In this document: positions 4,927 to 51,454 of the stretch, one piece after another
How positions within the stretch are numbered: position 1 is the first letter of the stretch
Layout of the letters: each line of letters opens with the position of its first letter
From: Candidatus Vogelbacteria bacterium
GTDB taxonomy: Bacteria > Patescibacteriota > Minisyncoccia > Phycocordibacterales > JACOZG01
Direction of reading: 5' to 3'
NCBI GenBank assembly: GCA_016181465.1
Contig: JACOZG010000021.1
Coordinates: 1 to 53,257 of the forward strand
Length of the DNA stretch: 53,257 bases
Program-made: the position numbers and the translations under genes
The notes under the pieces: model-generated
The model's database searches: none
Told to the model about the DNA's origin: nothing
Seen by the model: the letters and a program-made list of their open reading frames with translations, nothing else

Positions 4927-5478
4927 TTATTTCACAAACCGGAAGGTGGAGAGAACAGAATTTGAAACGTTATGACTAGATTCTTCAATTGTAAGACGGT
5001 AATTAGAAGGTGTTTCAACATAGAATGTTTTAGTTGTAGTGAATCTACCTTCCACTTTGTCTTCTATAAATTTAGCTTTGTAACCATTCAAAATAGTGTT
5101 TTGGAGATAAAAATCCTGTCTATAGTATTGCGCCTGATCGCCAAAAGAGATCATTAGCTGGTACTCTGGATTAGAGACGCTAACAAAACCGTTCATTGAG
5201 TTATCGAAGGTATAACCAATTGGGTATTTAAACTCAAACCCATACTCATCATTTCGGTAAGTTTTCCAGTCAGCGGTGGCGAGATCGGCAGTCGGGGCAG
5301 GAGCGGTGGTGAAAGAGTCAACATCTGGGGAAGTCGGACCCGCCTCGCCGTCGGGCAGGCTTCCCCCAATTGGTGTCGAGGCTTGATTTTTCCAAACGGT
5401 ATAACCGCCGAGAGCTAAAACGGCAAGAAGGATAAGGATAATGAGGGCAACGGCCGAGAAACCTTGATTTTTTGTCAT
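4927..5478 (-). CDS. Membrane-anchored or secreted hypothetical protein
   Basis: 183 aa with an N-terminal hydrophobic helix (AVALIILILLAVLALGG), then a Pro/Thr/Ala linker and a beta-rich domain (WKTYRNDEYGFEFKYP). Confidence 0.65.
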   Translation of the reverse strand: MTKNQGFSAVALIILILLAVLALGGYTVWKNQASTPIGGSLPDGEAGPTSPDVDSFTTAPAPTADLATADWKTYRNDEYGFEFKYPIGYTFDNSMNGFVSVSNPEYQLMISFGDQAQYYRQDFYLQNTILNGYKAKFIEDKVEGRFTTTKTFYVETPSNYRLTIEESSHNVSNSVLSTFRFVK

Positions 5479-7530: not shown

Positions 7531-7956
7531 GTGGCTTCTTTTGCCTTTCTTATAATTGGGGGTTTTTTATTACTAAATATAATTGTTGTTGGGTTTTTGC
7601 TTGCTTTTAGGATTAAACCGATTGCTAACTTTCTCGCTTTACTTCCTGAAACCTCATTCGATATTTTAAATACTTGGTTAGATGTGTTAATTGCGACTTT
7701 GTTACTTCCCTTGTTACCAGCAATAACTTCTCGATTACTATACCCCGTTCGCATTAGAAAAACATGGTTTTATTCTATAATCCCCGTGGCTATTTCCGTC
7801 ATTGCATATAATTTTTTTCCAAAGTCTTGGTGGTTAATGCTTTTATTGTCAACGACTGCGGTCGGATTTATTATTGGTAGATTGATTGACAAAAAAGAAC
7901 AAGGGAAAATTATCGCCGATACAAATTGGAATCTTGAAGCCGAGACCCGGGCTTGA
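7531..7956 (+). CDS. Hypothetical multi-pass membrane protein
   Basis: 141 aa with about 4 hydrophobic helices in an AT-rich segment. Its 3' end overlaps tRNA-Thr by 19 nt, so the true end and the reality of the gene are uncertain. Confidence 0.45.
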   Translation: MASFAFLIIGGFLLLNIIVVGFLLAFRIKPIANFLALLPETSFDILNTWLDVLIATLLLPLLPAITSRLLYPVRIRKTWFYSIIPVAISVIAYNFFPKSWWLMLLLSTTAVGFIIGRLIDKKEQGKIIADTNWNLEAETRA

Positions 7957-8010
7957 ACCGGGGACCTGCGGTTTACGATACCGCCGCTCTACCAGCTGAG
8001 CTATCTCGGC
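7938..8010 (-). tRNA. tRNA-Thr (anticodon CGU)
   Basis: The reverse complement reads GCCGAGA-TA-GCTCAGCTGGTAGAGC..GCGGT-ATCGTAA-ACCGC..GGTTCAAGCCC..TCTCGGC-T, a 73-nt cloverleaf. Confidence 0.9.
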
Positions 8011-8456
8011 CTACTAGCGAACAATAAACGACCCTCCTTTACCCTTTTACTCAAAACTCTATTCTTTCTACCATTTCCGCGGTTAAGCCCAGCGTATGTG
8101 GGAGTCAAAGCATCACAATTTGGACAAATTAAACGAAGGTTGGCTTCAATATTATTTCGCCAGTTACCATCAATGTGATCAGCAACCAATGGAACCTCAC
8201 CAGTCTTGAAATTGATCTTTGACCATCCGCACAAACAACACCTGTTTCCAAACTTTCCTCGTAAATACCGTTTGATGTAGGACGAGACCGTACCGATACT
8301 TTGCAACCCGCTCGTTTCCCCAGCTCTCCATTTTCTAATGTACAACCGATGTTGGAATTTAATCTGACATACATTACTGCAATATTTATATTGTGCACGC
8401 GCCGGTTCTTTACCACAAGTTAAACACCTTCTTCTAGACATCTTGGGTACTGGCAT
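8001..8456 (-). CDS. HNH endonuclease
   Basis: 151 aa. It has Cys-rich zinc-ribbon pairs (CLTCG, CCLCGW) and the HNH core ADHIDGNWRNNIEANLRLICPNCDA. Its 3' end overlaps tRNA-Thr(CGU) by 10 nt. Confidence 0.85.
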   Translation of the reverse strand: MPVPKMSRRRCLTCGKEPARAQYKYCSNVCQIKFQHRLYIRKWRAGETSGLQSIGTVSSYIKRYLRGKFGNRCCLCGWSKINFKTGEVPLVADHIDGNWRNNIEANLRLICPNCDALTPTYAGLNRGNGRKNRVLSKRVKEGRLLFASRPR

Positions 8457-8536
8457 ATGACTAACTAATTGTATGTCTTATGACGACCAGTGTCAAAGGT
8501 AAAAATGGTTGGGCGAAATAAGATTCTGGCGCCGAA

Positions 8537-8609
8537 AGCCGTTGGGCGGGATTGAACCGCCGACCTCGCGCTTACCATGCGCGTGCTCTACCAACTGAGC
8601 TACAACGGC
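8537..8609 (-). tRNA. tRNA-Thr (anticodon GGU)
   Basis: The reverse complement reads GCCGTTG-TA-GCTCAGTTGGTAGAGC..CGCGC-ATGGTAA-GCGCG..GGTTCAATCCC..CAACGGC-T, 73 nt. Confidence 0.9.
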
Positions 8610-8651
8610 TTCCTCCATAATTTAACACGATTGTTAGAACTAGACAAAAAC

Positions 8652-8680
8652 TTGACAAAAATAACTGGATATGCTAACCT
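8652..8680 (+). promoter_or_regulatory. Sigma70-type promoter with extended -10
   Basis: TTGACA at 8652-8657 is followed by a 17-nt spacer and then TGcTAACCT (TG at 8672-8673, -10 at 8675-8680). Confidence 0.55.
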
Positions 8681-8754
8681 ATAATAGACGCTGGATTGTC
8701 GGTTGATGGTCAATCAGCAAAACCAGCTAAGGTCCTCAAAATGGAGGAAAAGCC

Positions 8755-8871
8755 ATGATTCTGTCAGGACCCTTCGGAGATTGCACGCTGGACGAGATCA
8801 GTTGGGGCGGCCCCCGGGCCGAGCTCTATCTCGCGGACCTGCTCGGTCAGGACCCACCGACTGACGAGTAG
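8755..8871 (+). CDS. Candidate 38-aa small protein (may instead be part of a structured ncRNA)
   Basis: GGAGG sits 7 nt upstream of ATG 8755. My translation is MILSGPFGDCTLDEISWGGPRAELYLADLLGQDPPTDE*. The ORF is bracketed by its own promoter and terminator and is below the ORF-track size cutoff. Confidence 0.35.
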   Translation: MILSGPFGDCTLDEISWGGPRAELYLADLLGQDPPTDE

Positions 8872-8894
8872 CGAGGACGGGGGAAAGAAATTTA

Positions 8895-8934
8895 GGGCGG
8901 CGCCACACGGTGCCGCCTCTTTGCGTATTTTTTG
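8895..8934 (+). terminator. Intrinsic terminator
   Basis: GGCGGCGCC (8896-8904) pairs with GGTGCCGCC (8909-8917) around an ACAC loop. The tail is TCTTTGCGTATTTTTT. Confidence 0.75.
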
Positions 8935-8960
8935 AGCTTCTGGCACAATGTAAGATAGAT

Positions 8961-9032
8961 TGCGGGGTAGAGCAGTGGTAGCTCGTCGGGCTCATAACCC
9001 GGAGGCCGTTGGTTCGAATCCAACCCCCGCTA
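8961..9032 (+). tRNA. tRNA-Met (CAU), initiator type
   Basis: TGCGGGG-TA-GAGCAGTGGTAGCTC..TCGGG-CTCATAA-CCCGG..GGTTCGAATCC..CCCCGCT-A. It shows a 1:72 mismatch (U:U), an A11:U24 pair, and three G:C pairs closing the anticodon stem. Confidence 0.85.
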
Positions 9033-9056
9033 TTAGGAAGAGCAAGACGTTTTCTT

Positions 9057-9129
9057 GTCGGGGTAGCTCAGTTGGTAGAGCACGGGACTCATAAGCCCGC
9101 GGTCGTGGGTTCAAGCCCCACCCCCGACA
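9057..9129 (+). tRNA. tRNA with CAU anticodon, elongator type (Met, or Ile2 if lysidine-modified)
   Basis: GTCGGGG-TA-GCTCAGTTGGTAGAGC..CGGGA-CTCATAA-GCCCG..GGTTCAAGCCC..CCCCGAC-A. It has a C11:G24 pair and a paired 1:72. Confidence 0.85.
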
Positions 9130-9132
9130 TAG

Positions 9133-9207
9133 GCGGGCGTAGTGTAGCCTGGATAACACGTCTCCCTGTCACGGAGAAGACCGCCGGTTCAAATCCGGTC
9201 GCCCGCG
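9133..9207 (+). tRNA. tRNA-Asp (anticodon GUC)
   Basis: GCGGGCG-TA-GTGTAGCCTGGATAACAC..TCTCC-CTGTCAC-GGAGA..GGTTCAAATCC..CGCCCGC-G. Confidence 0.9.
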
Positions 9208-10213: not shown

Positions 10214-10780
10214 TCAGATAAAATTGAACTCCCGGAAGACGCGTTCGAAACGGTCAAGCGCCGCTCGCGCCTCGCGGCGCGTCAAGACAAACTGGCTGTC
10301 GTGGGCGATTTGATTTCTCGTCTTATGCGCCTCCCAAGCGTCTTGGAGCGAAAGGAAGTCGCTTGGCTCGATGGCCTTTAAGCGCTCGCCCAAATTTTCC
10401 CCGGGATAATTCATCGCTTGAACCATTTCATCGAGCATAATGTCAGCTTCAATGATCGCCTGTTTCCAGTCCGAGGGATTGTCCGAATCCATCACCTTAA
10501 TGAGTTTGGCCCAACGTTCGTCGCGGATAGTTTTGTCTGAACTGTCAGTCCGCACCAAATTCAGAAATCCACGCACCTCTTCTTTCCGCAAGTTGGTAAT
10601 TTTATAAATCAAAATCACAATGGCGGCGGCGAGAATGAGCGAGAGGGCAATCAACCAAACCTTGAGCGCCGTGAGTGATGAAAATAGCGCCACGAGAAAG
10701 GGCAAAATCCCAACCAGAAAACGATAAACCAGATTGAAAAAATACTCCAGATTGAGATAATTTGGTTCAAAGATTGGCAT
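10214..10780 (-). CDS. Hypothetical membrane protein
   Basis: The start was moved to ATG 10780 (MPIFEPNYL..), because the longer ORF overlaps the gatA 3' end. It has two TM helices and then a helical soluble domain, with a 14-nt overlap with gatA. Confidence 0.6.
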   Translation of the reverse strand: MPIFEPNYLNLEYFFNLVYRFLVGILPFLVALFSSLTALKVWLIALSLILAAAIVILIYKITNLRKEEVRGFLNLVRTDSSDKTIRDERWAKLIKVMDSDNPSDWKQAIIEADIMLDEMVQAMNYPGENLGERLKAIEPSDFLSLQDAWEAHKTRNQIAHDSQFVLTRREARAALDRFERVFREFNFI

Positions 10781-12212
10781 AGTGCTTGGCAATTTGGAAG
10801 AGCCGGCCTTCGCCGCCCGGCGGCGCCATAATCTGCAGGCCAAACGGCAAACCGCTCGCCGCTCGACCGGACGGAATCGAGATCGCCGGCAGACCGGCGA
10901 GATTGGCCGGGACAGTAAACAAATCTTCTAAGTACATCTGAACCGGATCGGCCAGACGCTCGCCGAGCTTAAAGGCCGGCGCCGGCGTGGTCGGCGTCAG
11001 AATAGCGTCCACCTGATTGAAGGCGGCGGCAAACTCACTCGCGATCGCCTGTTTAACGGCAAAGGCCTTAGCATAATAAGCGTCATAGTAACCAGCCGAG
11101 AGCGCGTAAGTGCCGAGGATCACTCGCCGTCTGACTTCCAAGCCGAAACCGTTGCCCCGCGTCGTCCGATAATCGTCAAACAGATCCTGCCCCGGAAAAT
11201 ACGAGCCGTAACGGATGCCGTCGTAACGAGCCAGATTGGATGAGGCCTCGGCCGGCATAATCACATAATAGGCGGCTAGGGCATAAGGAGCAGTCGGCAA
11301 ATCAATATCCATAATTTCATAACCGGCCGCGGCTAAACTGGCTGTCGCCACGGAAAAATTTTCGGCGCCGGCGCGGTTCAAACCCTGATCTAAGAAACGG
11401 CGCGGCACGCCAAGTTTAAATTTCTTAAATTTCTCAAGGTTCGACCTTGAGACTTTGGAAATTAAAGGTCGAACCTTTTCTGATAAAGAAGTAGAATCAT
11501 TCTCGTCTCGCCCCTTGATCACCTCAAAAATCCTTTCAACATCGTCCGCCGTCCGCGCTAACGGTCCAATCTGGTCAAACGACGGGGCCAGAGCGATCAA
11601 ACCAAAGCGCGACACCGCGCCGTAAGTCGGTTTCAAGCCAAGCACGCCGCAGAAAGCCGCTGGCTGACGCACCGAGCCGCCGGTATCCGATCCGAGGGCG
11701 GCGAGAGCGAGGCCGGCGGCGAGAGCCGCGGCCGAGCCGCCGGAAGAACCACCAGCCACGCGCTCGGGGTCATGAGGATTTTTGGTCGGACCAAAAGCCG
11801 AATTTTCGGTCGAAGCGCCCATCGCAAACTCGTCCATATTGGTCCGACCGAGGAAGACGGCGCCGGCGGCGCGCAGTTTCGCAATCACGGTGGCGTCGTA
11901 GGCCGCGGTGTAATTTTCCAGCATCTTCGACCCGGCGCTGGCGCGCCGGCCCTTGATCAAAATATTATCTTTGACGGCAATGGGCACGCCCTCAAGCGCC
12001 CGCAACGGTTCGCCCGAGGCCAAACGACGATCAATGGCCTCGGCGGCGGTTAAGGCATCGTCAAAAACTTCAAGGTAGGCATTGAGCCCGGGATTTATTT
12101 TCTCAATCTGTTTTAGATAATATTCGACGAGCTCGCTGGCGCGCCACGCGCCGCGAGCCAAACCCTCGAGCCACCGAGCAATCGTCAATTGCGAAAAATC
12201 ACGAACCGCCAT
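10767..12212 (-). CDS. gatA: Glu/Asp-tRNA amidotransferase subunit A
   Basis: Amidase signature GGSSGGSAAALAAG, and PIAVKDNI near the N-terminus. The start is set at ATG 12212 (MAVRDF..), because the longer ORF is out-of-frame read-through of gatC. It overlaps gatC by 14 nt. Confidence 0.95.
   Translation of the reverse strand: MAVRDFSQLTIARWLEGLARGAWRASELVEYYLKQIEKINPGLNAYLEVFDDALTAAEAIDRRLASGEPLRALEGVPIAVKDNILIKGRRASAGSKMLENYTAAYDATVIAKLRAAGAVFLGRTNMDEFAMGASTENSAFGPTKNPHDPERVAGGSSGGSAAALAAGLALAALGSDTGGSVRQPAAFCGVLGLKPTYGAVSRFGLIALAPSFDQIGPLARTADDVERIFEVIKGRDENDSTSLSEKVRPLISKVSRSNLEKFKKFKLGVPRRFLDQGLNRAGAENFSVATASLAAAGYEIMDIDLPTAPYALAAYYVIMPAEASSNLARYDGIRYGSYFPGQDLFDDYRTTRGNGFGLEVRRRVILGTYALSAGYYDAYYAKAFAVKQAIASEFAAAFNQVDAILTPTTPAPAFKLGERLADPVQMYLEDLFTVPANLAGLPAISIPSGRAASGLPFGLQIMAPPGGEGRLFQIAKHYANL
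11436..11477. repeat. REPIN-like inverted doublet inside gatA
   Basis: AAGGTTCGACCTT (11436-11448) and AAGGTCGAACCTT (11465-11477) are exact reverse complements with a 16-nt spacer. The doublet is translated in-frame as EKVRPLISKVSRSNLE. Confidence 0.8.
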
Positions 12213-12540
12213 TTTTGTCACCGAAGATCGCCTTGACCTTGAAGTAAGGGCCTTCGGTCGTCGGCGCGGCGGCGCGCAACTTCTCTGCCTCGGCGGCGGC
12301 CGCGCCGCCGGCAGACGGATTATCTTCCCGCAAAACATTAACTGGAACAGTTTTCCAAGATTCGACCTTAAGACTTTGGGTTTTAAAGGTCGAACCTTTT
12401 CCGGTCGGAGCGGCTTGTTTGAGCTGATCAACATAATCAAGAATCGCGCCGAGGTCATTGAGCAATCCGGCCTGCTCGGCCGTGGTCAAGTTAATCCGCG
12501 CCAGCGACGCTAATTGAGTCAGTTCTTTTTCTCCCATCAT
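12199..12540 (-). CDS. gatC: Glu/Asp-tRNA amidotransferase subunit C
   Basis: 113 aa. The N-terminal LASLARINLT..E......L..IL.YV..L and the later ..LRED.. segment fit GatC. It sits directly upstream of and overlapping gatA. Confidence 0.85.
   Translation of the reverse strand: MMGEKELTQLASLARINLTTAEQAGLLNDLGAILDYVDQLKQAAPTGKGSTFKTQSLKVESWKTVPVNVLREDNPSAGGAAAAEAEKLRAAAPTTEGPYFKVKAIFGDKNGGS
12357..12398. repeat. REPIN-like inverted doublet inside gatC (same family as the gatA copy)
   Basis: AAGATTCGACCTT (12357-12369) and AAGGTCGAACCTT (12386-12398). The spacer shares AGACTTTGG with the gatA copy. It is translated in a different frame as GKGSTFKTQSLKVESW. Confidence 0.8.
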
Positions 12541-12552
12541 TGTTTCAGTCTA

Positions 12553-14702
<2,150 letters not shown>

Positions 14703-14737: not shown

Positions 14738-16501
14738 CTACGGCCCGCCACCGCCGATATTGTAAATAAACCTTAACTCGCGCTGGCCGCTCAAACCATC
14801 ACCAAGAATAGACAAAGTTATGAAATAGGGACTGCCATCTCTAAGTGCGATTGACCTATCCGGTATCATTATCTGGAAGTGAGTTGAATAATTATTAGAA
14901 CTTGATAAGGTGCTGCACTGACTTCGTTGGCCGCAATAACCAGGATCATCATCAAAATCACAAAATGTTCTTTGGGTATCATCGTTGACTATATTATATA
15001 TGGACATTCCTCCGGAACTTGAAATGAATGAATCAATGCAGACTTTCGCATTCCTCTCTTCCAAAACACTATTATCTCCGCCATCGATCCGAGTCACGCT
15101 GATTGTGGCTGGCGGCGTATAAGCCGGCTGGCCAGAATTATGGGAATCAATTTTCAAAATCGCCGGAGTAGAATCTATAGTAACTTCTACCAAGTCTACC
15201 GCCGGATTCCTGAATTTAGCAGTCACAAATTTATCCCCAGTGCTCATATCCAAACCGCATGGCGAGGTTCCCGGACAAACAACATCAGATCCATTAACGA
15301 TCCAACCATCAAACACACAAGCAACTTCATCACCGGTATCTGGATCTAAACAGGCTCCAGAACCCAATGGGTCCGGTGTGCCAGTCAAAGTAACCGTGTC
15401 AGTAACGGAATATGTGTTTGAACAAATATCCCGACAACCGTTGCTTATCCAGTCAGACGGTAACGGATTGCTACCGGAATTATCAGCTGTCACTTTGCCA
15501 TAAGTGCCACCACTGACTGTAACGGAAAGTTGGGGCGTATTAGGATTTGAAACGGTTATCCGGCAAGTAGCAGTACCGTTTCCGCCATTGGTCACAGTGA
15601 CCGTCCCTTCTTTATTATTGTCAGCGGTACTATAAGTTTTAGTTACAGTGCGTCCCGAGGCGGTAGGTTGACCATCATTCCAAGACCAATTATAGGTATA
15701 ACTTGAGTCAGTAGGATTAGTTGTTTCCCAAGTAACATCCACTGTGCCAGTGATCGGATCAAGATCAAAATTTGTTTTCTGATTACCGTTAGCATCTGTG
15801 GTCTGGCATTGAACATTGAGTGTGTCCAGAGTTACGCAAGCGGCATCACCCAGAGTTGGATCGCTGTCCTTGGGACAAAAATCAATCCAACCGACCACAT
15901 CCGCGCCCCAGGCATAATCTCTCAACTGACCGGAATTAGTATCGTAAGTTACGCCATAAGGACTACCATCAACTGCGGTCCCCTCCATACTGATCCAACC
16001 GTCCCAGCCGCCGCGGTCGCTGTCTAATTTCAAACCATAATTATCGGCCGGGTCATTATTACCCTGGCAACCACTCTTGAAAACCGAACAAGCTCTGATC
16101 CAACCCGTCACTTGACCGGTGGCAGGATTCAGTTGGGCCGCCGCGCCAGATTGTCCGGACGGCAAAGCGTTTCCGCCGCTACCAATGATCGGATTAAAAC
16201 GAATCCAGCCGATGTTTGAACTCCAGGCGTACTTCTCAAATTCATTAACAGCAGACAAACTAACGCCATCATTAAATCCATTGAAACTGATCCAGCCAAT
16301 GTTAGAGCTCCAGGCATAACCAGACAAATCATGCGCTACGCCATTAGTTCCTTCAGCTACCGGCAAAGAGATAAAACCGGAGTAAAAACCAGCGACACTA
16401 AAAAAAAGAAACAGACCCAAAACTAAAATACGCCATGGAATTTTCATACTACTAAAATATTTTAGCATCCGAACAACCTTATCGCTACTAAACTTATCCA
16501 C
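14738..16501 (-). CDS. Large secreted pilus-locus protein with (Y)AW..N(I/V)GWI.F repeats and a PKD-like domain
   Basis: 587 aa with an N-terminal signal/anchor. The repeats are GYAWSSNIGWISFNG, KYAWSSNIGWIRFNP and DYAWGADVVGWIDFCP, plus partial GWI copies. A PKD-like stretch is present (TYNWSWNDG...TVTKTY). It is the last gene of the pseudopilin block. Confidence 0.7.
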   Translation of the reverse strand: MDKFSSDKVVRMLKYFSSMKIPWRILVLGLFLFFSVAGFYSGFISLPVAEGTNGVAHDLSGYAWSSNIGWISFNGFNDGVSLSAVNEFEKYAWSSNIGWIRFNPIIGSGGNALPSGQSGAAAQLNPATGQVTGWIRACSVFKSGCQGNNDPADNYGLKLDSDRGGWDGWISMEGTAVDGSPYGVTYDTNSGQLRDYAWGADVVGWIDFCPKDSDPTLGDAACVTLDTLNVQCQTTDANGNQKTNFDLDPITGTVDVTWETTNPTDSSYTYNWSWNDGQPTASGRTVTKTYSTADNNKEGTVTVTNGGNGTATCRITVSNPNTPQLSVTVSGGTYGKVTADNSGSNPLPSDWISNGCRDICSNTYSVTDTVTLTGTPDPLGSGACLDPDTGDEVACVFDGWIVNGSDVVCPGTSPCGLDMSTGDKFVTAKFRNPAVDLVEVTIDSTPAILKIDSHNSGQPAYTPPATISVTRIDGGDNSVLEERNAKVCIDSFISSSGGMSIYNIVNDDTQRTFCDFDDDPGYCGQRSQCSTLSSSNNYSTHFQIMIPDRSIALRDGSPYFITLSILGDGLSGQRELRFIYNIGGGGP

Positions 16502-18300: not shown

Positions 18301-18917
18301 GTTGGGTTTTTAACCGAGATTTGGCCGGTGTTCCAAACCTCGACCCACTTTTGGTCACTAGTTCTCGTTGATTTTAACACTATTCGGACATAACTAGGAG
18401 CCGGGGCCAAACCGATGAAGGTCGCCTCAGGGTAAAAACGTTGGAACAGAATGTCTAGCTTTTGCGGACTAAGATTGGCACAAGAAGAACCGCAACCCTG
18501 CAAACTTTCTATTTCCGCCGCGCCGCGGATGGCGAATTTTTCAACAATCTGATCAGTCGCATCATAGCCTTGAGTTGAACCGGTTTTATCGGCGTACAAA
18601 ATAAAAGATTTTTTACCATCGGAAATGGACAAATCAAAATAAAGTCCGTAGGCCGGGAAAGAACTGGCCCCGGCCGCGCGCGTGCCGATGCCGTAGACCT
18701 GGGCCTGGCGGATGGTCGTGGCGATCTCCTGGGCGATCAGTTGGAGCGCGGTTTTGTCGCGGAACGCCGGGAAGTTAGCCATCACCACGCCGAGCATAAT
18801 AAGGAAAATGGTCAAGACCACCATGATCTCAATCAGGGTTAACCCCGACTGACGTCTAAACGGCAAACGATAAATTGGACAAGAGAGCAAAGACATCAAG
18901 GTGGAATAAATAAACAA
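18297..18917 (-). CDS. Type IV minor pilin (GspH/FimT-like)
   Basis: Prepilin motif RRQSG|LTLIEIMVVLTIFLIMLGV. The start is uncertain (alternative ATG at 18896). It overlaps the pilD 3' end. Confidence 0.75.
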   Translation of the reverse strand: MFIYSTLMSLLSCPIYRLPFRRQSGLTLIEIMVVLTIFLIMLGVVMANFPAFRDKTALQLIAQEIATTIRQAQVYGIGTRAAGASSFPAYGLYFDLSISDGKKSFILYADKTGSTQGYDATDQIVEKFAIRGAAEIESLQGCGSSCANLSPQKLDILFQRFYPEATFIGLAPAPSYVRIVLKSTRTSDQKWVEVWNTGQISVKNPT

Positions 18918-19617
18918 GCGCGGCGCCGAGGAAAAGAAAGGGCGCGAACGGCACCTCGCTCTTTAAATTATAACTTTTTAGCGCCACGAGCGCGAGGCCG
19001 ACCAGGGCGCCGGACCAAAACGCGAGCGCCGCGGCCGAGAAGGTCGCTGGCCAGCCGAGGAAAAGACCGAGGCCGAGCGCGAGTTTGGCGTCGCCAAGGC
19101 CGAGCCACCGGCCGCGCGAGACAAACCATAAAAGCCAAAGGGAGAGGCCGAAAGCGAGGCCGACGAGAGCGGCGTTGCCGGCCCAGCCCAGCCAAACCGA
19201 CCGCAGGAGAGCGACGACGATCAAGCCGTAGACAAAATGATCCGGAATAATCTTGTGTCGCCAGTCGTAGACCGTGATGACAATGAGCAGACTAAAAATA
19301 ATCCAGTCCACGACAAGGGTCCAAGCGAGGCCGTTGCCGCGCCAGAAACTGCCGAGGAAGAGTGCGGCCGTGAGCAATTCGACCACGGGATACTGCCAAG
19401 AAATTTTAGCTTGGCAGGTGCGGCAGCGGCCGAGCTGGATGAGAAAGCTCAAGACCGGAACGAGCTCAAACCACTTGAGCTCCTGACCGCAAATTAAACA
19501 GCCGGACCGGCCGAGCACCGTGTACCCGGTTTGGTAACGGTAAATCACGACATTCAAAAAACTGCCGACGATCAAACCGAAAATGAACACTGCCAACGGT
19601 ATTAACCAAATCATCAC
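18856..19617 (-). CDS. pilD: Prepilin peptidase (A24 family)
   Basis: 253 aa and polytopic. It has an N-terminal GSFLNVVIYR segment, the Cys pairs CLICGQ..CRTCQ and a GLGDAKL motif. Confidence 0.9.
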   Translation of the reverse strand: MMIWLIPLAVFIFGLIVGSFLNVVIYRYQTGYTVLGRSGCLICGQELKWFELVPVLSFLIQLGRCRTCQAKISWQYPVVELLTAALFLGSFWRGNGLAWTLVVDWIIFSLLIVITVYDWRHKIIPDHFVYGLIVVALLRSVWLGWAGNAALVGLAFGLSLWLLWFVSRGRWLGLGDAKLALGLGLFLGWPATFSAAALAFWSGALVGLALVALKSYNLKSEVPFAPFLFLGAALVYLFHLDVFALLSNLSFAV

Positions 19618-19689
19618 CTTAAATTATAACACGCGCCTAACACACCACCCCCTGACTTATCCACCACCAGAGTTACCGGCAAGACCGGC

Positions 19690-19702
19690 AAGGTTAAACC
19701 TC
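19690..19702 (-). repeat. REP-like hairpin overlapping the RAYT stop codon, inverted relative to the upstream copies
   Basis: The plus strand reads AAGGTTAAACCTC. The minus strand reads GAGGTTTAACCTTGCCGG, matching 17 of 18 positions of the TCAAGGTTTAACCTTGCCGG unit at 20473-20536. Confidence 0.7.
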
Positions 19703-20380
19703 GACAATAGCATCGTCAAAATTTATCCACAAGTTCAGAAAATCATCGAAATCTTTGCGACTTTGAAAATAATTTGGGAAATCATCTGGGGTAAGAATTT
19801 TATTGTGTGATCGCGGTAAACCAGTGTAATAGTGGTAACTTGAATACTCGTAACCGTTCAAAAATTCTTTTGCGGTCTCTTTATTTCTAATCGTCTTTCC
19901 TTCCCAATCTTTAGGGTCAACAGTTTTCACCGGATTGAGATGAATATATGCCAGAAGATAATTTAGATAACGATCATTGTCCACATGCTGGGCTTTGAAC
20001 GTACTTTCAAATAAACCGCCCGTCCGTTGGTATTTTTTATTAAAATACATCGAATAACCAGTTTGGAGCTTTTGCATCATGAGAGAAATACCCTTATCTT
20101 CTTTTTCTCTCACTAACAAGTGGAAGTGGTTTGGCATTAAGCAATAGGCGCCAACATCAACTAAACGTTCGTTCAAACTAATTGGAATCACGTTGAAAAT
20201 ATTTTCGACATTCTGTCCCGGCCAATCGCTGGGGTGAAATTGCTCTTTGCTGTTAGCGAGATAGAGCGATGCGAGAAATCTAATGTGATCACGATGATCA
20301 AGAAAGGTTTGGCGTTTGTCAAAACCGCGGTTGTAAAGATGATAATACTCACCCGGGGCAAAAGAGAATTTCCTGGTCAT
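19694..20380 (-). CDS. REP-associated tyrosine transposase (RAYT; IS200/IS605-type Y1 HUH transposase family)
   Basis: 228 aa. It has YHLYNRG near the N-terminus, the HUH motif LMPNHFHLL, and the catalytic Tyr region YLLAYIHLNPVK. It is a single gene flanked by inverted REP-like hairpins. Confidence 0.85.
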   Translation of the reverse strand: MTRKFSFAPGEYYHLYNRGFDKRQTFLDHRDHIRFLASLYLANSKEQFHPSDWPGQNVENIFNVIPISLNERLVDVGAYCLMPNHFHLLVREKEDKGISLMMQKLQTGYSMYFNKKYQRTGGLFESTFKAQHVDNDRYLNYLLAYIHLNPVKTVDPKDWEGKTIRNKETAKEFLNGYEYSSYHYYTGLPRSHNKILTPDDFPNYFQSRKDFDDFLNLWINFDDAIVEV

Positions 20381-20407
20381 TAAGTTTCAGTTTAATTCCA
20401 TTGCTAT

Positions 20408-20536
20408 CTTATGTCAAGGTTTAACCTTGCCAAAACCACGGTAAAGAAAAACCGGCATTTTTGCCGGAATCTCTTATGTCAAGGTTTAACCTTGCCGGAG
20501 GCTACTTATGTCAAGGTTTAACCTTGCCGGAGGCTA
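20408..20536 (+). repeat. Three REP-like units CTTATGTCAAGGTTTAACCTTGCC; the last two form an exact 32-bp tandem
   Basis: Units lie at 20408-20431, 20473-20496 and 20505-20528. Segments 20473-20504 and 20505-20536 are identical (CTTATGTCAAGGTTTAACCTTGCCGGAGGCTA). Confidence 0.85.
20443..20467 (-). terminator. Intrinsic terminator after pilA, embedded between REP units
   Basis: The minus strand reads CCGGCA-aaaa-TGCCGG followed by TTTTTCTTT. Confidence 0.6.
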
Positions 20537-20546
20537 GGGCTGAAAA

Positions 20547-21029
20547 CTAATCGCAGGCTTGATCAGTAATAGTCGGAGCTCCAGTCGTTTGTTTTGATGC
20601 TCCATTACTGTCAGCGCACCAATATTCACCAGTATCATTGACTAATTGAGCAGAAGCAGCCCACGCTGTCGCTGTACTATCACAAGCTACAGCGCCTGAA
20701 GGCACATCTATAGCATCTAATATGGCTTGAACTTGGGTATTCGCCCACAAACTGTCAGCAGTACCACCAGAGCAATCAGTAGAAGCTGTACCGTAATCAC
20801 TGTTATCATCGTAAAAAATCTCGGCTTGAGAACGAAGACTGGCCATTTCTGATTTAATTTGAGCGTCTCGAGCCTTATTTCTAGCAGTACTCAACGATGT
20901 CAACACAATACCGGACAAGATGCCGATGATGGCGATGACGACGAGGAGTTCGATCAGGGTGAAACCCGCCCCGCCTACGGCGGTTCGGGCAGGCCCTTTC
21001 TTAGCAACTTTCAAGAAATTCGAATTCAT
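20547..21029 (-). CDS. pilA: Type IV major pilin
   Basis: 160 aa with the motif GGAG|FTLIELLVVIAIIGILSGIVL and a C-terminal Cys pair (C..C). It has its own AT-rich upstream region. Confidence 0.85.
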   Translation of the reverse strand: MNSNFLKVAKKGPARTAVGGAGFTLIELLVVIAIIGILSGIVLTSLSTARNKARDAQIKSEMASLRSQAEIFYDDNSDYGTASTDCSGGTADSLWANTQVQAILDAIDVPSGAVACDSTATAWAASAQLVNDTGEYWCADSNGASKQTTGAPTITDQACD

Positions 21030-32731: not shown

Positions 32732-32740
32732 ATTCATGGC

Positions 32741-32775
32741 AAGGCGAGACCTTGCCACGGGCAAGGTCTCGCCTT
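32741..32775. repeat. REPIN-like doublet (class AAGGCGAGACCTT) between convergent genes
   Basis: 32741-32753 AAGGCGAGACCTT and 32763-32775 AAGGTCTCGCCTT are the same arms as the ligA copy at 13854-13889. The doublet probably doubles as a bidirectional terminator. Confidence 0.8.
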
Positions 32776-32779
32776 GATA

Positions 32780-33931: not shown

Positions 33932-33934
33932 GCC

Positions 33935-33947
33935 AAGGGCTGCCCTT
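33935..33947. repeat. Single REP-like hairpin AAGGGCTGCCCTT
   Basis: It has the AAGGG-N3-CCCTT architecture, as in the arms at 14263-14296. It is intergenic. Confidence 0.5.
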
Positions 33948-33973
33948 GGTAAATGAGTGGTGGGGTGTAATTT

Positions 33974-41261: not shown

Positions 41262-41422
41262 TTTTCATTCAAGACAAATAGCCCCTCGACTCTCGCCTGC
41301 GGTGAGCGCAGTCGAACCGCTCGGGACATTCGCCTCGTTCGCACGACAAAAACTCGATCCCTTGGTTTTGGTCGAGTGGTTTACCATGAGCGAGTCCCGA
41401 GTTTATCGAGGGGCGAGTCGAA

Positions 41423-41801
41423 TGGAGATGCCGGGAATCGAACCCGGGTGCAAGGAGGAAACAAAGGTGAGTCTACCGATCTAGCCGATTTTGAATTTTG
41501 ACCGAGAACCGTCGAAAACGGCAAAATCGCTTCTCGGCGAGTCTCTTGAGTTTCGGTTACTTAGTGAGACGCTAAATTCCCTATCCCGAAGATTATGACA
41601 CCCGTTATCCCCTATCGGAAGTCAGGAAAACGGACGCCGGTTTAAGCGTAAGCGAAAACCGGAGCAAAAGCGCGGGCGAACCCGTCCTTTACTTTAGAGA
41701 ATAAGTTGGCACTTATTCGATGGCTCGTTAGATTAGCGAGTTACGAGCGCGCTCGACCGGCACACATTTTTTTAAACTCCTTGTCTAGGCCGATCATCCC
41801 C
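41423..41801 (-). ncRNA. ssrA: tmRNA (SsrA)
   Basis: The 5' end is GGGGATGATCGGCCTAGACAAGG and the 3' end is ..GGGTTCGATTCCCGGCATCTCCA. The acceptor stem has G3:U70. An internal tag frame GCC AAC TTA ..GCT TAC GCT TAA (41710-41642) ends ..FAYA*. It lies next to smpB. Confidence 0.9.
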
Positions 41802-50677: not shown

Positions 50678-51454
50678 TTGATGCTAAAGTCAAAATACGA
50701 AAAAAGTAATAGTAATAATTGCGCTTACATGAAGTCAGTAGTAGATGTCGTTGGAGAAATTCGAAAATCACAATCAGCGAATTTTCATCGCGGTAAATCT
50801 TGGGAATATTGTTATGCTTTTTTTAGAAATCATGAAAAATTTAGTGATAATGAGAAACTTCTAGATTTTGCTGCTCTACATCTAGGTTTTTTCCTTGCCA
50901 GTTGGGGAATGTTTCGAGGTTCAAGTTTCTTACTACAAAAAGATTATAAATTTTATATTTCAATTGTTGAAATTCTTACAGATTCAGAATATAACAGACT
51001 GTGGGATATTGATTTTTTGAACAAATCGAAAGAGCAAAATCAAGATGTTGATTTGCTATTTCGACTTAAAGAAGAACTGGAAAATAAAATTATCGAAAAT
51101 AATACAAAAGATAAAGACGGAGGACATGAAATGAATTTGATCATAACGAAAATAATAATGGCGACTATGGGATGTGTCCCTGGATACGACAAATATTTCA
51201 AAGGTGGATTAAAAAATTGGTTAAATGAAAAAGAAAAATTTCAAAAAGAAGAAATTAGGAGATACCTTAATTTTAAAAAAGATTCGTTTAAAAATTTATT
51301 AAATCTAGTAAATGAAAATAATAAACTCAAAAATATATGCGACTCGAAACAATATCTTAAAAAAACAAGAGTTGAATACCCACCAATGAAATTACTAGAT
51401 TTGTTTTTTTGGCTTATAGGACGTGAAATGGTTATTAGCAAGGTGTCGCCTTGA
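50678..51454 (+). CDS. Hypothetical protein in a strongly AT-rich insert
   Basis: 258-aa ORF, Lys/Asn/Glu-rich. No motif was recognised and the start is uncertain (alternative M18). Confidence 0.5.
   Translation: MMLKSKYEKSNSNNCAYMKSVVDVVGEIRKSQSANFHRGKSWEYCYAFFRNHEKFSDNEKLLDFAALHLGFFLASWGMFRGSSFLLQKDYKFYISIVEILTDSEYNRLWDIDFLNKSKEQNQDVDLLFRLKEELENKIIENNTKDKDGGHEMNLIITKIIMATMGCVPGYDKYFKGGLKNWLNEKEKFQKEEIRRYLNFKKDSFKNLLNLVNENNKLKNICDSKQYLKKTRVEYPPMKLLDLFFWLIGREMVISKVSP

Follow-up and report, generated by a model that had tools for sequence, protein, structure and literature searches.

The question raised by this locus is what a gene of the tyrosine nuclease (Y1/HUH) class, bracketed by short palindromes, is doing between two genes for type IV pili: whether it is an insertion sequence (IS) that landed there, a resident nuclease with repeats of its own, a regulator with its operators, or a gene to which its palindromic neighbours mean nothing. 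The stretch of DNA analysed here, called the window in what follows, is the 53,257-nucleotide (nt) contig JACOZG010000021.1 of a Candidatus Vogelbacteria bacterium (assembly GCA_016181465.1), and the gene in question lies on its minus strand at 19694-20380 and encodes a protein of 228 amino acids (aa) resembling the tyrosine transposases associated with repetitive extragenic palindromic (REP) elements, or RAYTs. An initial annotation, made from the letters of the window alone, had read it as a RAYT with cognate REP hairpins inserted inside the type IV pilus operon. Our analyses make it probable that gene and palindromes form a REPtron-like module, in which a single-copy, vertically inherited Y1 nuclease of the RAYT class is bracketed by cognate palindromes whose units have been moved or copied; the gene, its hairpins and its position were found as first described, and the insertion as an event was not borne out. 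To our knowledge, work on RAYT/REP systems has dealt almost exclusively with Proteobacteria, and what they do there is still a matter of debate.

Both sequence hallmarks named at the outset, LMPNHFHLL and AYIHLNPVK, are encoded by this open reading frame (ORF). The HuH motif NHFH occupies residues 84-87 (His85 and His87), Tyr145 within YIHLNP is the catalytic-type residue, and an SS motif lies in EYSSYHYY. The protein passes the Pfam model Y1_Tnp with 39.6 bits (cut-off 23), and its sole NCBIfam match is REP_Tyr_transpos (NF047646), at 50 bits, a model matched by 29/29 aligned relatives (best E = 2.6e-14); the NCBIfam model transpos_IS200 found no match in the window protein and matches one of the 29 relatives, weakly (E = 0.0094). 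Residues H85, H87, Y145, N149 and P150 are unchanged across the 29 homologues of the family alignment, and the invariance of the HuH histidines and the tyrosine indicates that catalysis is under selection. When the AF2 model computed from that alignment (pLDDT 88.8, pTM 0.88) was compared by Foldseek with solved structures, the top match was 4er8_A (E = 3.9e-6, TM-score on the target 0.62), the Escherichia coli REP-associated tyrosine transposase TnpA_REP with a bound REP hairpin, followed by the TnpA proteins of ISDra2 and IS608 (2xm3, 2a6o). Sequence alone reached less far: a PDB sequence search returned nothing relevant, a PDB profile search gave one marginal ISDra2 match (E = 0.15), and hhalign against a single E. 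coli RayT sequence produced a sensible alignment of low probability, in which LPEHMH..YIYINPVK pairs with MPNHFH..YIHLNPVK. The remainder of the protein includes a conserved C-terminal domain of about 80 aa, and Pfam searches with E up to 1 detected no Bac_DnaA_C, HTH_23 or HTH_28 domain in the protein. The window protein belongs to the Y1/HUH class that includes the RAYTs. Databases hold more than 7,900 homologues, of which the best 120 are nearly all unnamed or named from Patescibacteria; the source labels among these read 'transposase' and once 'RayT', and the database entry 100% identical to the window protein bears the name 'transposase'.

In the scheme of Quentin et al. (2018, PMC6006769), the signature Y---NP defines TnpAY1 class 2, that is, the RAYT class, and Y---Q defines IS200; the window protein has the class-2 signature Y---NP, and Y---Q was not found in it. 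By its motifs alone the protein comes nearest to subclass 2.1, described with NH[YF]H, Y[IV]HLNP, an SS tail and about 238 aa (PMC6006769, Table 1), which equals RAYT Group 1 of Bertels et al. (2017, PMC5581495) and includes the TIRYTs, the members associated with terminal inverted repeats (TIRs). The likeness extends to NHFH, YIHLNP, YSSY, a length of 228 aa against a median of about 238 and a low copy number. Subclass 2.1 was, however, explicitly reported without REP-like sequences near the gene (PMC6006769), whereas such repeats always accompany the family of the window protein, and neither a distal HTH/DnaA_C-like domain nor GGGG[AT][CG]A[CG] repeats were found in the window module. The E. 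coli REPtron with TnpA_REP/RayT (YafM; 4ER8; subclass 2.2, Bertels Group 2) shares with the module the Y1/HUH core, the best fold match, Y---NP, a single-copy and vertical gene, inverted bracketing palindromes, like copies of which are dispersed in related genomes, and REPIN-like doublets, but its protein has 165 aa, against 228 aa with the additional C-terminal domain in the window, and is only 12% identical to it in the fold alignment. Further differences are the units themselves, which here measure 15-21 nt on a CAAGG/CCTTG foot, the copy numbers, which here reach tens at most and not hundreds, the embedding of a -35 box and a stop codon in the palindromes, and the host phylum, Patescibacteria.

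The palindromes beside the gene, all listed on the minus strand, follow the arrangement of the initial annotation, three copies on one side and one inverted copy on the other. Two exact tandem 32-nt units, CTTATGTCAAGGTTTAACCTTGCCGGAGGCTA (gene strand TAGCCTCCGGCAAGGTTAAACCTTGACATAAG), with a conserved 5' extension TAGCCTCC, occupy 20473-20504 and 20505-20536; the proximal upstream unit at 20408-20439 (gene strand GGCAAGGTTAAACCTTGACATAAG; repeat family D1) is 81% identical to them. The downstream unit, CCGGCAAGGTTAAACCTCGACA (gene strand TGTCGAGGTTTAACCTTGCCGG; inverted repeat I3), lies inverted at 19685-19706, is 95% complementary to 20477-20498, and has at its centre the stop codon TAA of the Y1 gene (19694-19696, minus strand). 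Adjoining it, a half-arm CTTGCCGG (gene strand CTTGCCGGTCTTGCCGG) can be read as directly duplicated at 19677-19692, and similar partial-arm duplications stand beside units in three of the homologous loci introduced below (L004, L018 and L001). The unit has the consensus K-G-Y-CAAGG-N5-CCTTG-R-C-M, where N5 is TTTAA in the window; the hairpin foot is CAAGG, with TAGCCTCCGG or (T)TGT as its 5' neighbour. As single-stranded DNA, the proximal unit is predicted to fold with -6.3 kcal/mol (z = -3.95).

Several observations on this cluster stand by themselves. On the plus strand at 20494-20546 each tandem unit reads as GGAGG, 6 nt and ATG, a Shine-Dalgarno-like box before a 24-codon ORF (MSRFNLAGGYLCQGLTLPEARAEN), and the GGAGGCTA tail of the units is conserved across genomes. 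A known structured RNA was considered and rejected, no Rfam family being found in 19400-20700. Two Logan contigs with an identical gene (L010 and L011) end 23 and 122 nt upstream of the ATG, within the palindrome cluster; independent short-read assemblies of the same organism thus break inside it, so that the repeats evidently fragment assemblies.

Whether palindromes and gene belong together was best judged from homologous loci. The first of these were picked by protein similarity alone (L001, 84% identity; L004, 70%; L006, 67%; L007, 57%; L008, 55%), and L018, L022, L027, L042, L060, L074, L087, L091, L099 and L126 were added later. In all 15 of the 15 homologous Y1 loci examined, one palindrome precedes the ATG by about 30-45 nt and a second stands at the stop codon or just behind it; both have the form (T)GTCAAGG-N5-CCTTGACA(T), and most loci have extra upstream units with the conserved 5' extension TAGCCTCCGG, interleaved with the terminator of the preceding gene. 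The N5 centre is uniform within a locus and varies between loci: TTTAA in the window and L001, TCGAA in L004, ACGGT in L006, GTTAC in L007, TCCGA in L008, ATAGT in L018 and CAACG in a paralogue present in L127 and L129; in some loci the foot itself changes from CAAGG/CCTTG to CGAGG/CCTCG. In a set of 29 distinct flanking units 90% of cells are paired and 7/11 pairs show changes on both sides; the covariation score was reached by none of 500 shuffles (0/500), and slid registers fall to 22-42% paired. Many homologues end in ..VKV, ..VKVEP, ..GKDGP or ..VKVGP, which means that their last codons are the palindrome itself. An identical 32-mer is present upstream of the L001 orthologue, and the number of units beside the gene differs among close relatives (3+1 in the window, 6+2 in L126). 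These comparisons support the view that the palindromes are cognate partners of the Y1 gene, in a fixed partnership rather than a chance neighbourhood. That they are ordinary terminators or chance palindromes unconnected with the gene is scarcely conceivable: they are intergenic, adjoin a true terminator and fold weakly as single units, but the core 15-mer, when up to 2 mismatches are allowed, is matched 10 times in the window against 0.12 expected, the T-run of a terminator is missing after the units, and all 15 loci repeat the arrangement with co-varying centres and with a palindrome-encoded stop codon and C-terminal residues.

Palindromes stand in other settings as well. The Y1 coding sequence of L006 itself includes, at 5161-5173, a unit (GGCAAGGACCGTCCTT, encoding WQGPSL) whose centre is that of the locus. 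It falls in the variable loop that precedes the HuH motif, where W/Y-Q-G-x-S-L is found in many homologues, and this recalls the REP insertions within tnpA_REP genes of subclass 2.4. In L123 a Y1 remnant (2045-2310; residues 181-228 only) is cut exactly at a palindrome and adjoins a 778-aa ORF, a configuration that suggests a palindrome-mediated deletion. L001 has, at 11632-11840, three GTAAC-centred units (two with a GGCCTCTGG extension, one symmetric) upstream of an AAA_14/DUF4143 ATPase gene, arranged as they are upstream of Y1 genes, yet there is no Y1 gene there.

The palindromes also enter the predicted expression signals of the gene. A promoter scan (10/12) places a sigma-70-type promoter of the Y1 gene at 20389-20417 on the minus strand, with TTGACA, 17 nt, TAAACT, 8 nt and the ATG, and its -35 hexamer TTGACA is the 3' end, on the gene strand, of the proximal palindrome. 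The same geometry recurs in L001, L004, L006, L007, L018, L060, L074 and L091, where the palindrome contains the -35 box, a spacer of 16-17 nt leads to a -10 box, and the ATG follows after 6-8 nt. This points to a leaderless or nearly leaderless Y1 mRNA and to the -35 box as part of the recognition element. On the same strand a terminator scan found, between palindromic units at 20452-20467, an intrinsic terminator for the pilin gene (CCGGCAAAAATGCCGG, then TTTTTCTTT), and equivalent terminators stand between units in L001, L006, L007 and L018. In both pilD (19617-19640) and the Y1 gene (20380-20417) the -10 box lies just 5-8 nt before the start, which suggests that leaderless mRNAs may be common in this organism.

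This wiring speaks for a different explanation, namely that the Y1 protein is a domesticated DNA-binding or single-strand-processing factor and that the palindromes are duplex-bound operator or promoter elements built round a symmetric -35 box, through which the protein, or another factor, would regulate the Y1 gene and others, their copies being regulatory sites that do not move. The -35 hexamer inside the proximal palindrome and the conserved spacings of 16-17 and 6-8 nt, found at at least nine loci, suit such a role; so does the kinship of the motifs with subclass 2.1, where no REPs were found and other roles have been proposed, and so does the fact that distant classes of the phylum have the unit in conserved form, as is unusual among REPs. 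The symmetric co-variation described above is equally compatible with a dimeric binding site and with a hairpin. Nevertheless we regard this explanation as unlikely. The HuH histidines and the tyrosine, which are invariant in the 29 homologues, speak against a merely domesticated factor, and the palindromes are symmetric through their very centre, with free choice of sequence, which is more typical of a hairpin than of an operator made of half-sites. Further evidence on this point comes from the copies away from the gene.

Before turning to these, the position of the module bears on whether it arrived as a mobile element. As the initial annotation had stated, it sits between pilA and pilD: upstream lies a pilA-like pilin gene (20547-21029, minus strand; Pfam N_methyl, synteny with L001 and L006) and downstream the prepilin peptidase gene pilD (18856-19617, minus strand; Pfam A24_N_bact and Peptidase_A24), which has, as read from its sequence, a -10 element of its own, TGTTATAAT, a few bases before its start. 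With the pilA terminator and separate Y1 and pilD promoters, the interval resolves into three separate predicted transcription units, so that the operon would not be functionally split by the Y1 gene and the module is predicted not to disrupt pilus gene expression. The comparison of pilA-pilD synteny in relatives, which had been proposed as a check, speaks against a recent insertion: Y1 orthologues with 84% (L001) and 67% (L006) aa identity occupy the same slot, and the neighbouring proteins of these loci are 78-91% (PilB/T/C) and 74% and 51% (PilD) identical to those of the window. Since the Y1 identities fall within the range of the neighbours, the gene diverged in place with them, and the module is, judging from this synteny, an old, vertically inherited resident of the pilA-pilD interval.

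With 38.6% GC the gene lies below the 50.3% of the window, which might suggest a recent horizontal arrival; the conserved synteny contradicts this, and low GC at third codon positions is also seen in pilA and in the minor pilin genes. The Y1 gene of L018 (59%) likewise adjoins a pilin gene. More distant homologues occupy other conserved slots. The Y1 genes of L004 and L007 lie upstream of pilB; elsewhere the gene is found between yebC and ruvC (L060), in a slot between rplS and a pseudouridine synthase gene common to L074 and L099, next to gatB (L091) and after gyrA (L008). A family-wide functional tie to type IV pili was rejected: pilus loci house the closest relatives (window, L001, L006, L018, L004 and L007), but more distant homologues sit in non-pilus slots (yebC/ruvC, rplS, gatB, gyrA). 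The housekeeping-like slots of the homologues argue against an IS, and housekeeping-like behaviour has been described for RAYTs (Bertels et al. 2017, PMC5581495).

An autonomous IS of the IS200/IS605 or TIRYT type, spanning 19685-20439 and transposed into the pilus operon, is accordingly a very unlikely reading. It would account for a module of about 750 base pairs (bp) with 22-nt inverted repeats at both ends, for the low GC content, and for the fold that the protein has in common with the TnpA of IS608 and ISDra2, and subclass 2.1 includes the TIR-associated TIRYTs; the IS200/IS605 TnpA proteins (subclass 1.1) also resemble the module in having hairpins on both sides and in their putative single-strand cut-and-rejoin chemistry. 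But gene copies with 84% and 67% identity stand at the same position in their genomes and have diverged like their neighbours, and tblastn finds a single Y1 gene within the 53-kb window, in agreement with the initial annotation of a single-copy gene; the homologues fall into database clusters of one to few members, which do not indicate many identical copies. The protein has Y---NP rather than Y---Q, lacks a match to the NCBIfam IS200 model, and with its extra C-terminal domain reaches 228 aa against about 150 aa for IS200 TnpA. The flanking units are inverted, whereas the ends of IS200/IS605 elements are direct; no tnpB gene is present near the Y1 gene, and none of the GGGG[AT][CG]A[CG] terminal repeats of TIRYTs occurs within 19-21 kb of the window. 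The ordinary IS200 TnpA with multiple gene copies, which had been named as the outcome that would overturn the RAYT assignment, was thus not seen in the window.

A REPtron-like module should have units away from the gene, and these were found in related genomes. The pattern GKCAAGGTTWAACCTTGMC, scanned over genome contigs, matched at least 111 stretches, mostly from metagenome-assembled genomes (MAGs) of Patescibacteria, and the site counts given here are lower bounds. In at least 13 Patescibacteria assemblies the TTWAA-centred unit occurs at 3 to at least 11 sites, the highest numbers being at least 11 in the Lloydbacteria MAG JAYSZV01, at least 8 in MHLM01, at least 6 each in JAUSIO01 and JAYUQG01, and at least 5 in JBBUAW01. 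Among the loci retrieved, a Y1 gene with the same flanking unit was present in MHLM01, JAYUQG01, JAUSIO01, MFVN01, SIBV01 and CAYWTW01, and the dispersed copies have the flank sub-variant of the Y1 copies of their own genome (GTAGGC tails in JAUSIO01, AAAAAAGG tails in MHLM01). Among the matches listed, about three quarters lie in stretches without a long ORF and the remainder inside long ORFs. A 27-mer with the GGAGGCTA tail, searched in JGI metagenomes, was found on 4 contigs, all at Y1 loci, which implies that the tailed unit marks the gene's own cluster and that the symmetric unit is the dispersed form. Dispersal of units of the same kind in related genomes is supported by these data. Part of this material bears on the operator explanation, since behind several dispersed copies in the Lloydbacteria-type genomes MHLM01 and JAYUQG01 there is a conserved A-rich stretch with TTAAAT-like boxes at its end; the distance from TTGACA to the -10-like box in the Lloydbacteria repeats is, however, about 21-22 nt, which is over-long for a promoter.

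The window itself is rich in sister palindromes with other centres. The form AAGG-N5-CCTT occurs 14 times against 0.7 expected, and most of the sister units are arranged as inverted doublets that would fold into strong hairpins (-12 to -22 kcal/mol). Four doublets lie in frame in consecutive essential genes, two in ligA and one each in a gatC-like ORF and in gatA. The first ligA doublet (ORF 12553-14667, minus strand), at 14263-14297 with centres GCGAC/GTCGC and -15.5 kcal/mol, stands just before the KxDG adenylation motif; it is absent in the orthologue L127 and present in L129 with a compensatory pair change, and at this site many orthologues have doublets with differing centres and others have none. 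The second, of 36 nt at 13854-13890 with centres CGAGA/TCTCG, is kept in ligA orthologues of 83%, 66%, 65% and 64% identity and absent in four at 79-81%; at the DNA level it is present in L129 with a compensatory C:G to T:A change in its arms, and L127 and L128 are cleanly without it. Presence and absence of the ligA doublets among orthologues of 64-83% identity therefore do not track relatedness. A doublet with centre TCGAA at 12357-12398, in the gatC-like ORF 12199-12540 (minus strand), recurs in gatC of L127 and L129, and another with centre TTCGA/TCGAA at 11435-11478 lies in gatA (Amidase domain; ORF 10767-12458, minus strand); the two encode alike peptides (EKVRPL..KV.RSNL). The nusA genes of L004 and L007 each contain a doublet as well; that of L004, 2.7 kb from the Y1 gene, has the centre of its own locus.

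Taken together, these doublets show what is expected of elements that are mobile, or have at least come and gone repeatedly, and that keep their pairing; a purely regulatory role for the palindrome family is hard to reconcile with them. Doublets of the same family stand in frame in ligA, gatC, gatA and nusA, positions in which an operator would serve no purpose, and the two ligA doublets, the sole ones compared across orthologues, are polymorphic for presence. REP insertions in genes have been mentioned before (PMC6006769). A further likeness is to the Rickettsia palindromic elements (RPEs), short palindromic repeats that have entered housekeeping genes in frame, as the inserts in ligA, gatC and gatA, and those in nusA of L004 and L007, are likewise in frame and non-destructive. 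The inserts described here differ from RPEs in measuring about 36-45 nt (12-15 aa), in consisting of two inverted 13-15-nt units and in belonging to the same family as the palindromes that bracket a Y1 gene; we know of no transposase tied to RPEs.

Other members of the palindrome family in the window are intergenic. A CGAGA/TCTCG doublet with a 7-nt spacer at 32740-32776, between convergent genes, forms a perfect 17-bp hairpin (-22.3 kcal/mol, z = -10). Further members lie at 33934-33948 and 51439-51453; one follows a terminator-like hairpin, and one includes the stop codon that closes ORF 50678-51454 (258 aa, without a Pfam match), as at Y1 genes. A tmRNA gene at 41420-41801 (107 bits) and a cluster of five tRNA genes at 7938-9207, both found with Rfam, are ordinary and unrelated to the module.

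The other centres of the window find a possible source in the relatives. In L127 (1-300) and L129 (1-330) ligA is immediately preceded by a second Y1_Tnp gene, whose end is formed by the palindrome ATGTCAAGGCAACGCCTTGACA, with the centre CAACG, which shows that relatives hold at least two paralogues with different centres; in the window, the place upstream of ligA is taken by a 587-aa ORF (14738-16501) without a Pfam match. Several RAYTs per genome with differing repeats have been described (PMC6006769), and paralogues of this kind in relatives may explain the other centres seen in the window.

A number of findings weigh against a RAYT/REP assignment. The window protein, at 50 bits, does not reach the equivalog cut-off of 80 bits of NF047646, so that the profile comparison proposed in the initial annotation places it in Y1_Tnp and short of the RAYT model. 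The canonical 5' GT[AG]G guide at the foot of REP hairpins is absent, GTAG being seen just 6 nt further out and in some loci only, and the residues W94 and Q95 that read GTAG in E. coli are F-E in the window protein; subclasses 2.6 and 3 are also without the GT[AG]G guide (PMC6006769). Single units are weak hairpins of about -4 to -6 kcal/mol, and their symmetric co-variation would be equally expected from a dimeric protein that binds double-stranded DNA. No further copy of the exact TTTAA unit was found within the 53-kb window outside 19685-20536; the 10 units of the window besides the four at the gene have five other centres, and there is no second Y1 gene in the window from which they might stem. 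Copy numbers in the relatives (3 to at least 11) are far under those of classical REPs; they are of an order similar to the copy number of 12 reported for the 16-mers flanking Group 1 genes (Bertels et al. 2017, PMC5581495). Finally, the TTGACA within the unit gives many dispersed copies a promoter-like look. On the other side stand a structure that agrees with RAYT/REP systems in most respects, the class and fold of the protein, the architecture repeated at 15/15 loci and the dispersal of units in relatives, and on balance we favour the REPtron-like module.

If this module works as its homologues do, a mechanism can be outlined. By analogy with E. coli TnpA_REP and with the TnpA proteins of IS608 and ISDra2, the Y1 protein would bind the unit as a small hairpin in single-stranded DNA. 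As in the homologues, His85 and His87 would hold a metal ion, and Tyr145 would cut near the hairpin foot, forming a 5'-phosphotyrosine link before the strands are rejoined; single units and inverted REPIN-like doublets could in this way be copied or moved round the genome. Because the -35 box lies in the proximal and the stop codon in the distal palindrome, the enzyme, by binding both, would probably control its own expression.

A wider proposal is that Patescibacteria possess a phylum-wide, vertically inherited Y1/palindrome system of an undescribed kind. Its RAYT, resembling subclass 2.1, would be self-regulating through the promoter and stop codon set in its own palindromes; doublets would have been driven into intergenic DNA and also in frame into ligA, gatCAB and nusA, to be kept as hairpins by compensation or repeatedly gained and lost, and the several paralogues of a genome would each have a centre of their own. 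We put this forward tentatively, as a possibility that we hold to be rather less than even. The initial annotation had known of no well-described RAYT/REP systems in small-genome uncultivated lineages. With more than 7,900 homologues the protein family is not rare; a literature search for REPs or RAYTs in Patescibacteria or the Candidate Phyla Radiation returned no description, one preprint mentioning a KEGG K07491 match in an archaeon. The module is an unusually clean and, as it seems, undescribed RAYT/REP-like system in Patescibacteria, unsurprising in principle.

What the finding adds is that the logic of RAYT/REP systems is now seen in the Candidate Phyla Radiation, whose genomes are streamlined, with a protein resembling subclass 2.1, the one large RAYT subclass for which cognate repeats had not been known, and with a very regular wiring that sets a -35 box in one palindrome and a stop codon in another. 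Were the Y1 protein only a regulator, a transposase would here have become a transcription factor. An active enzyme, on the other hand, would account for a class of short repeats and for the 12-aa inserts that essential proteins of these organisms contain. The small protein and its 21-nt hairpin would then make a tractable system for the study of how RAYTs choose their targets, and the finding would serve as a warning that such palindromes break metagenome assemblies and inflate the apparent divergence of proteins. Should the phylum-wide proposal be true, the system would be a source of variation in protein loops and of genome plasticity in ultra-small genomes.

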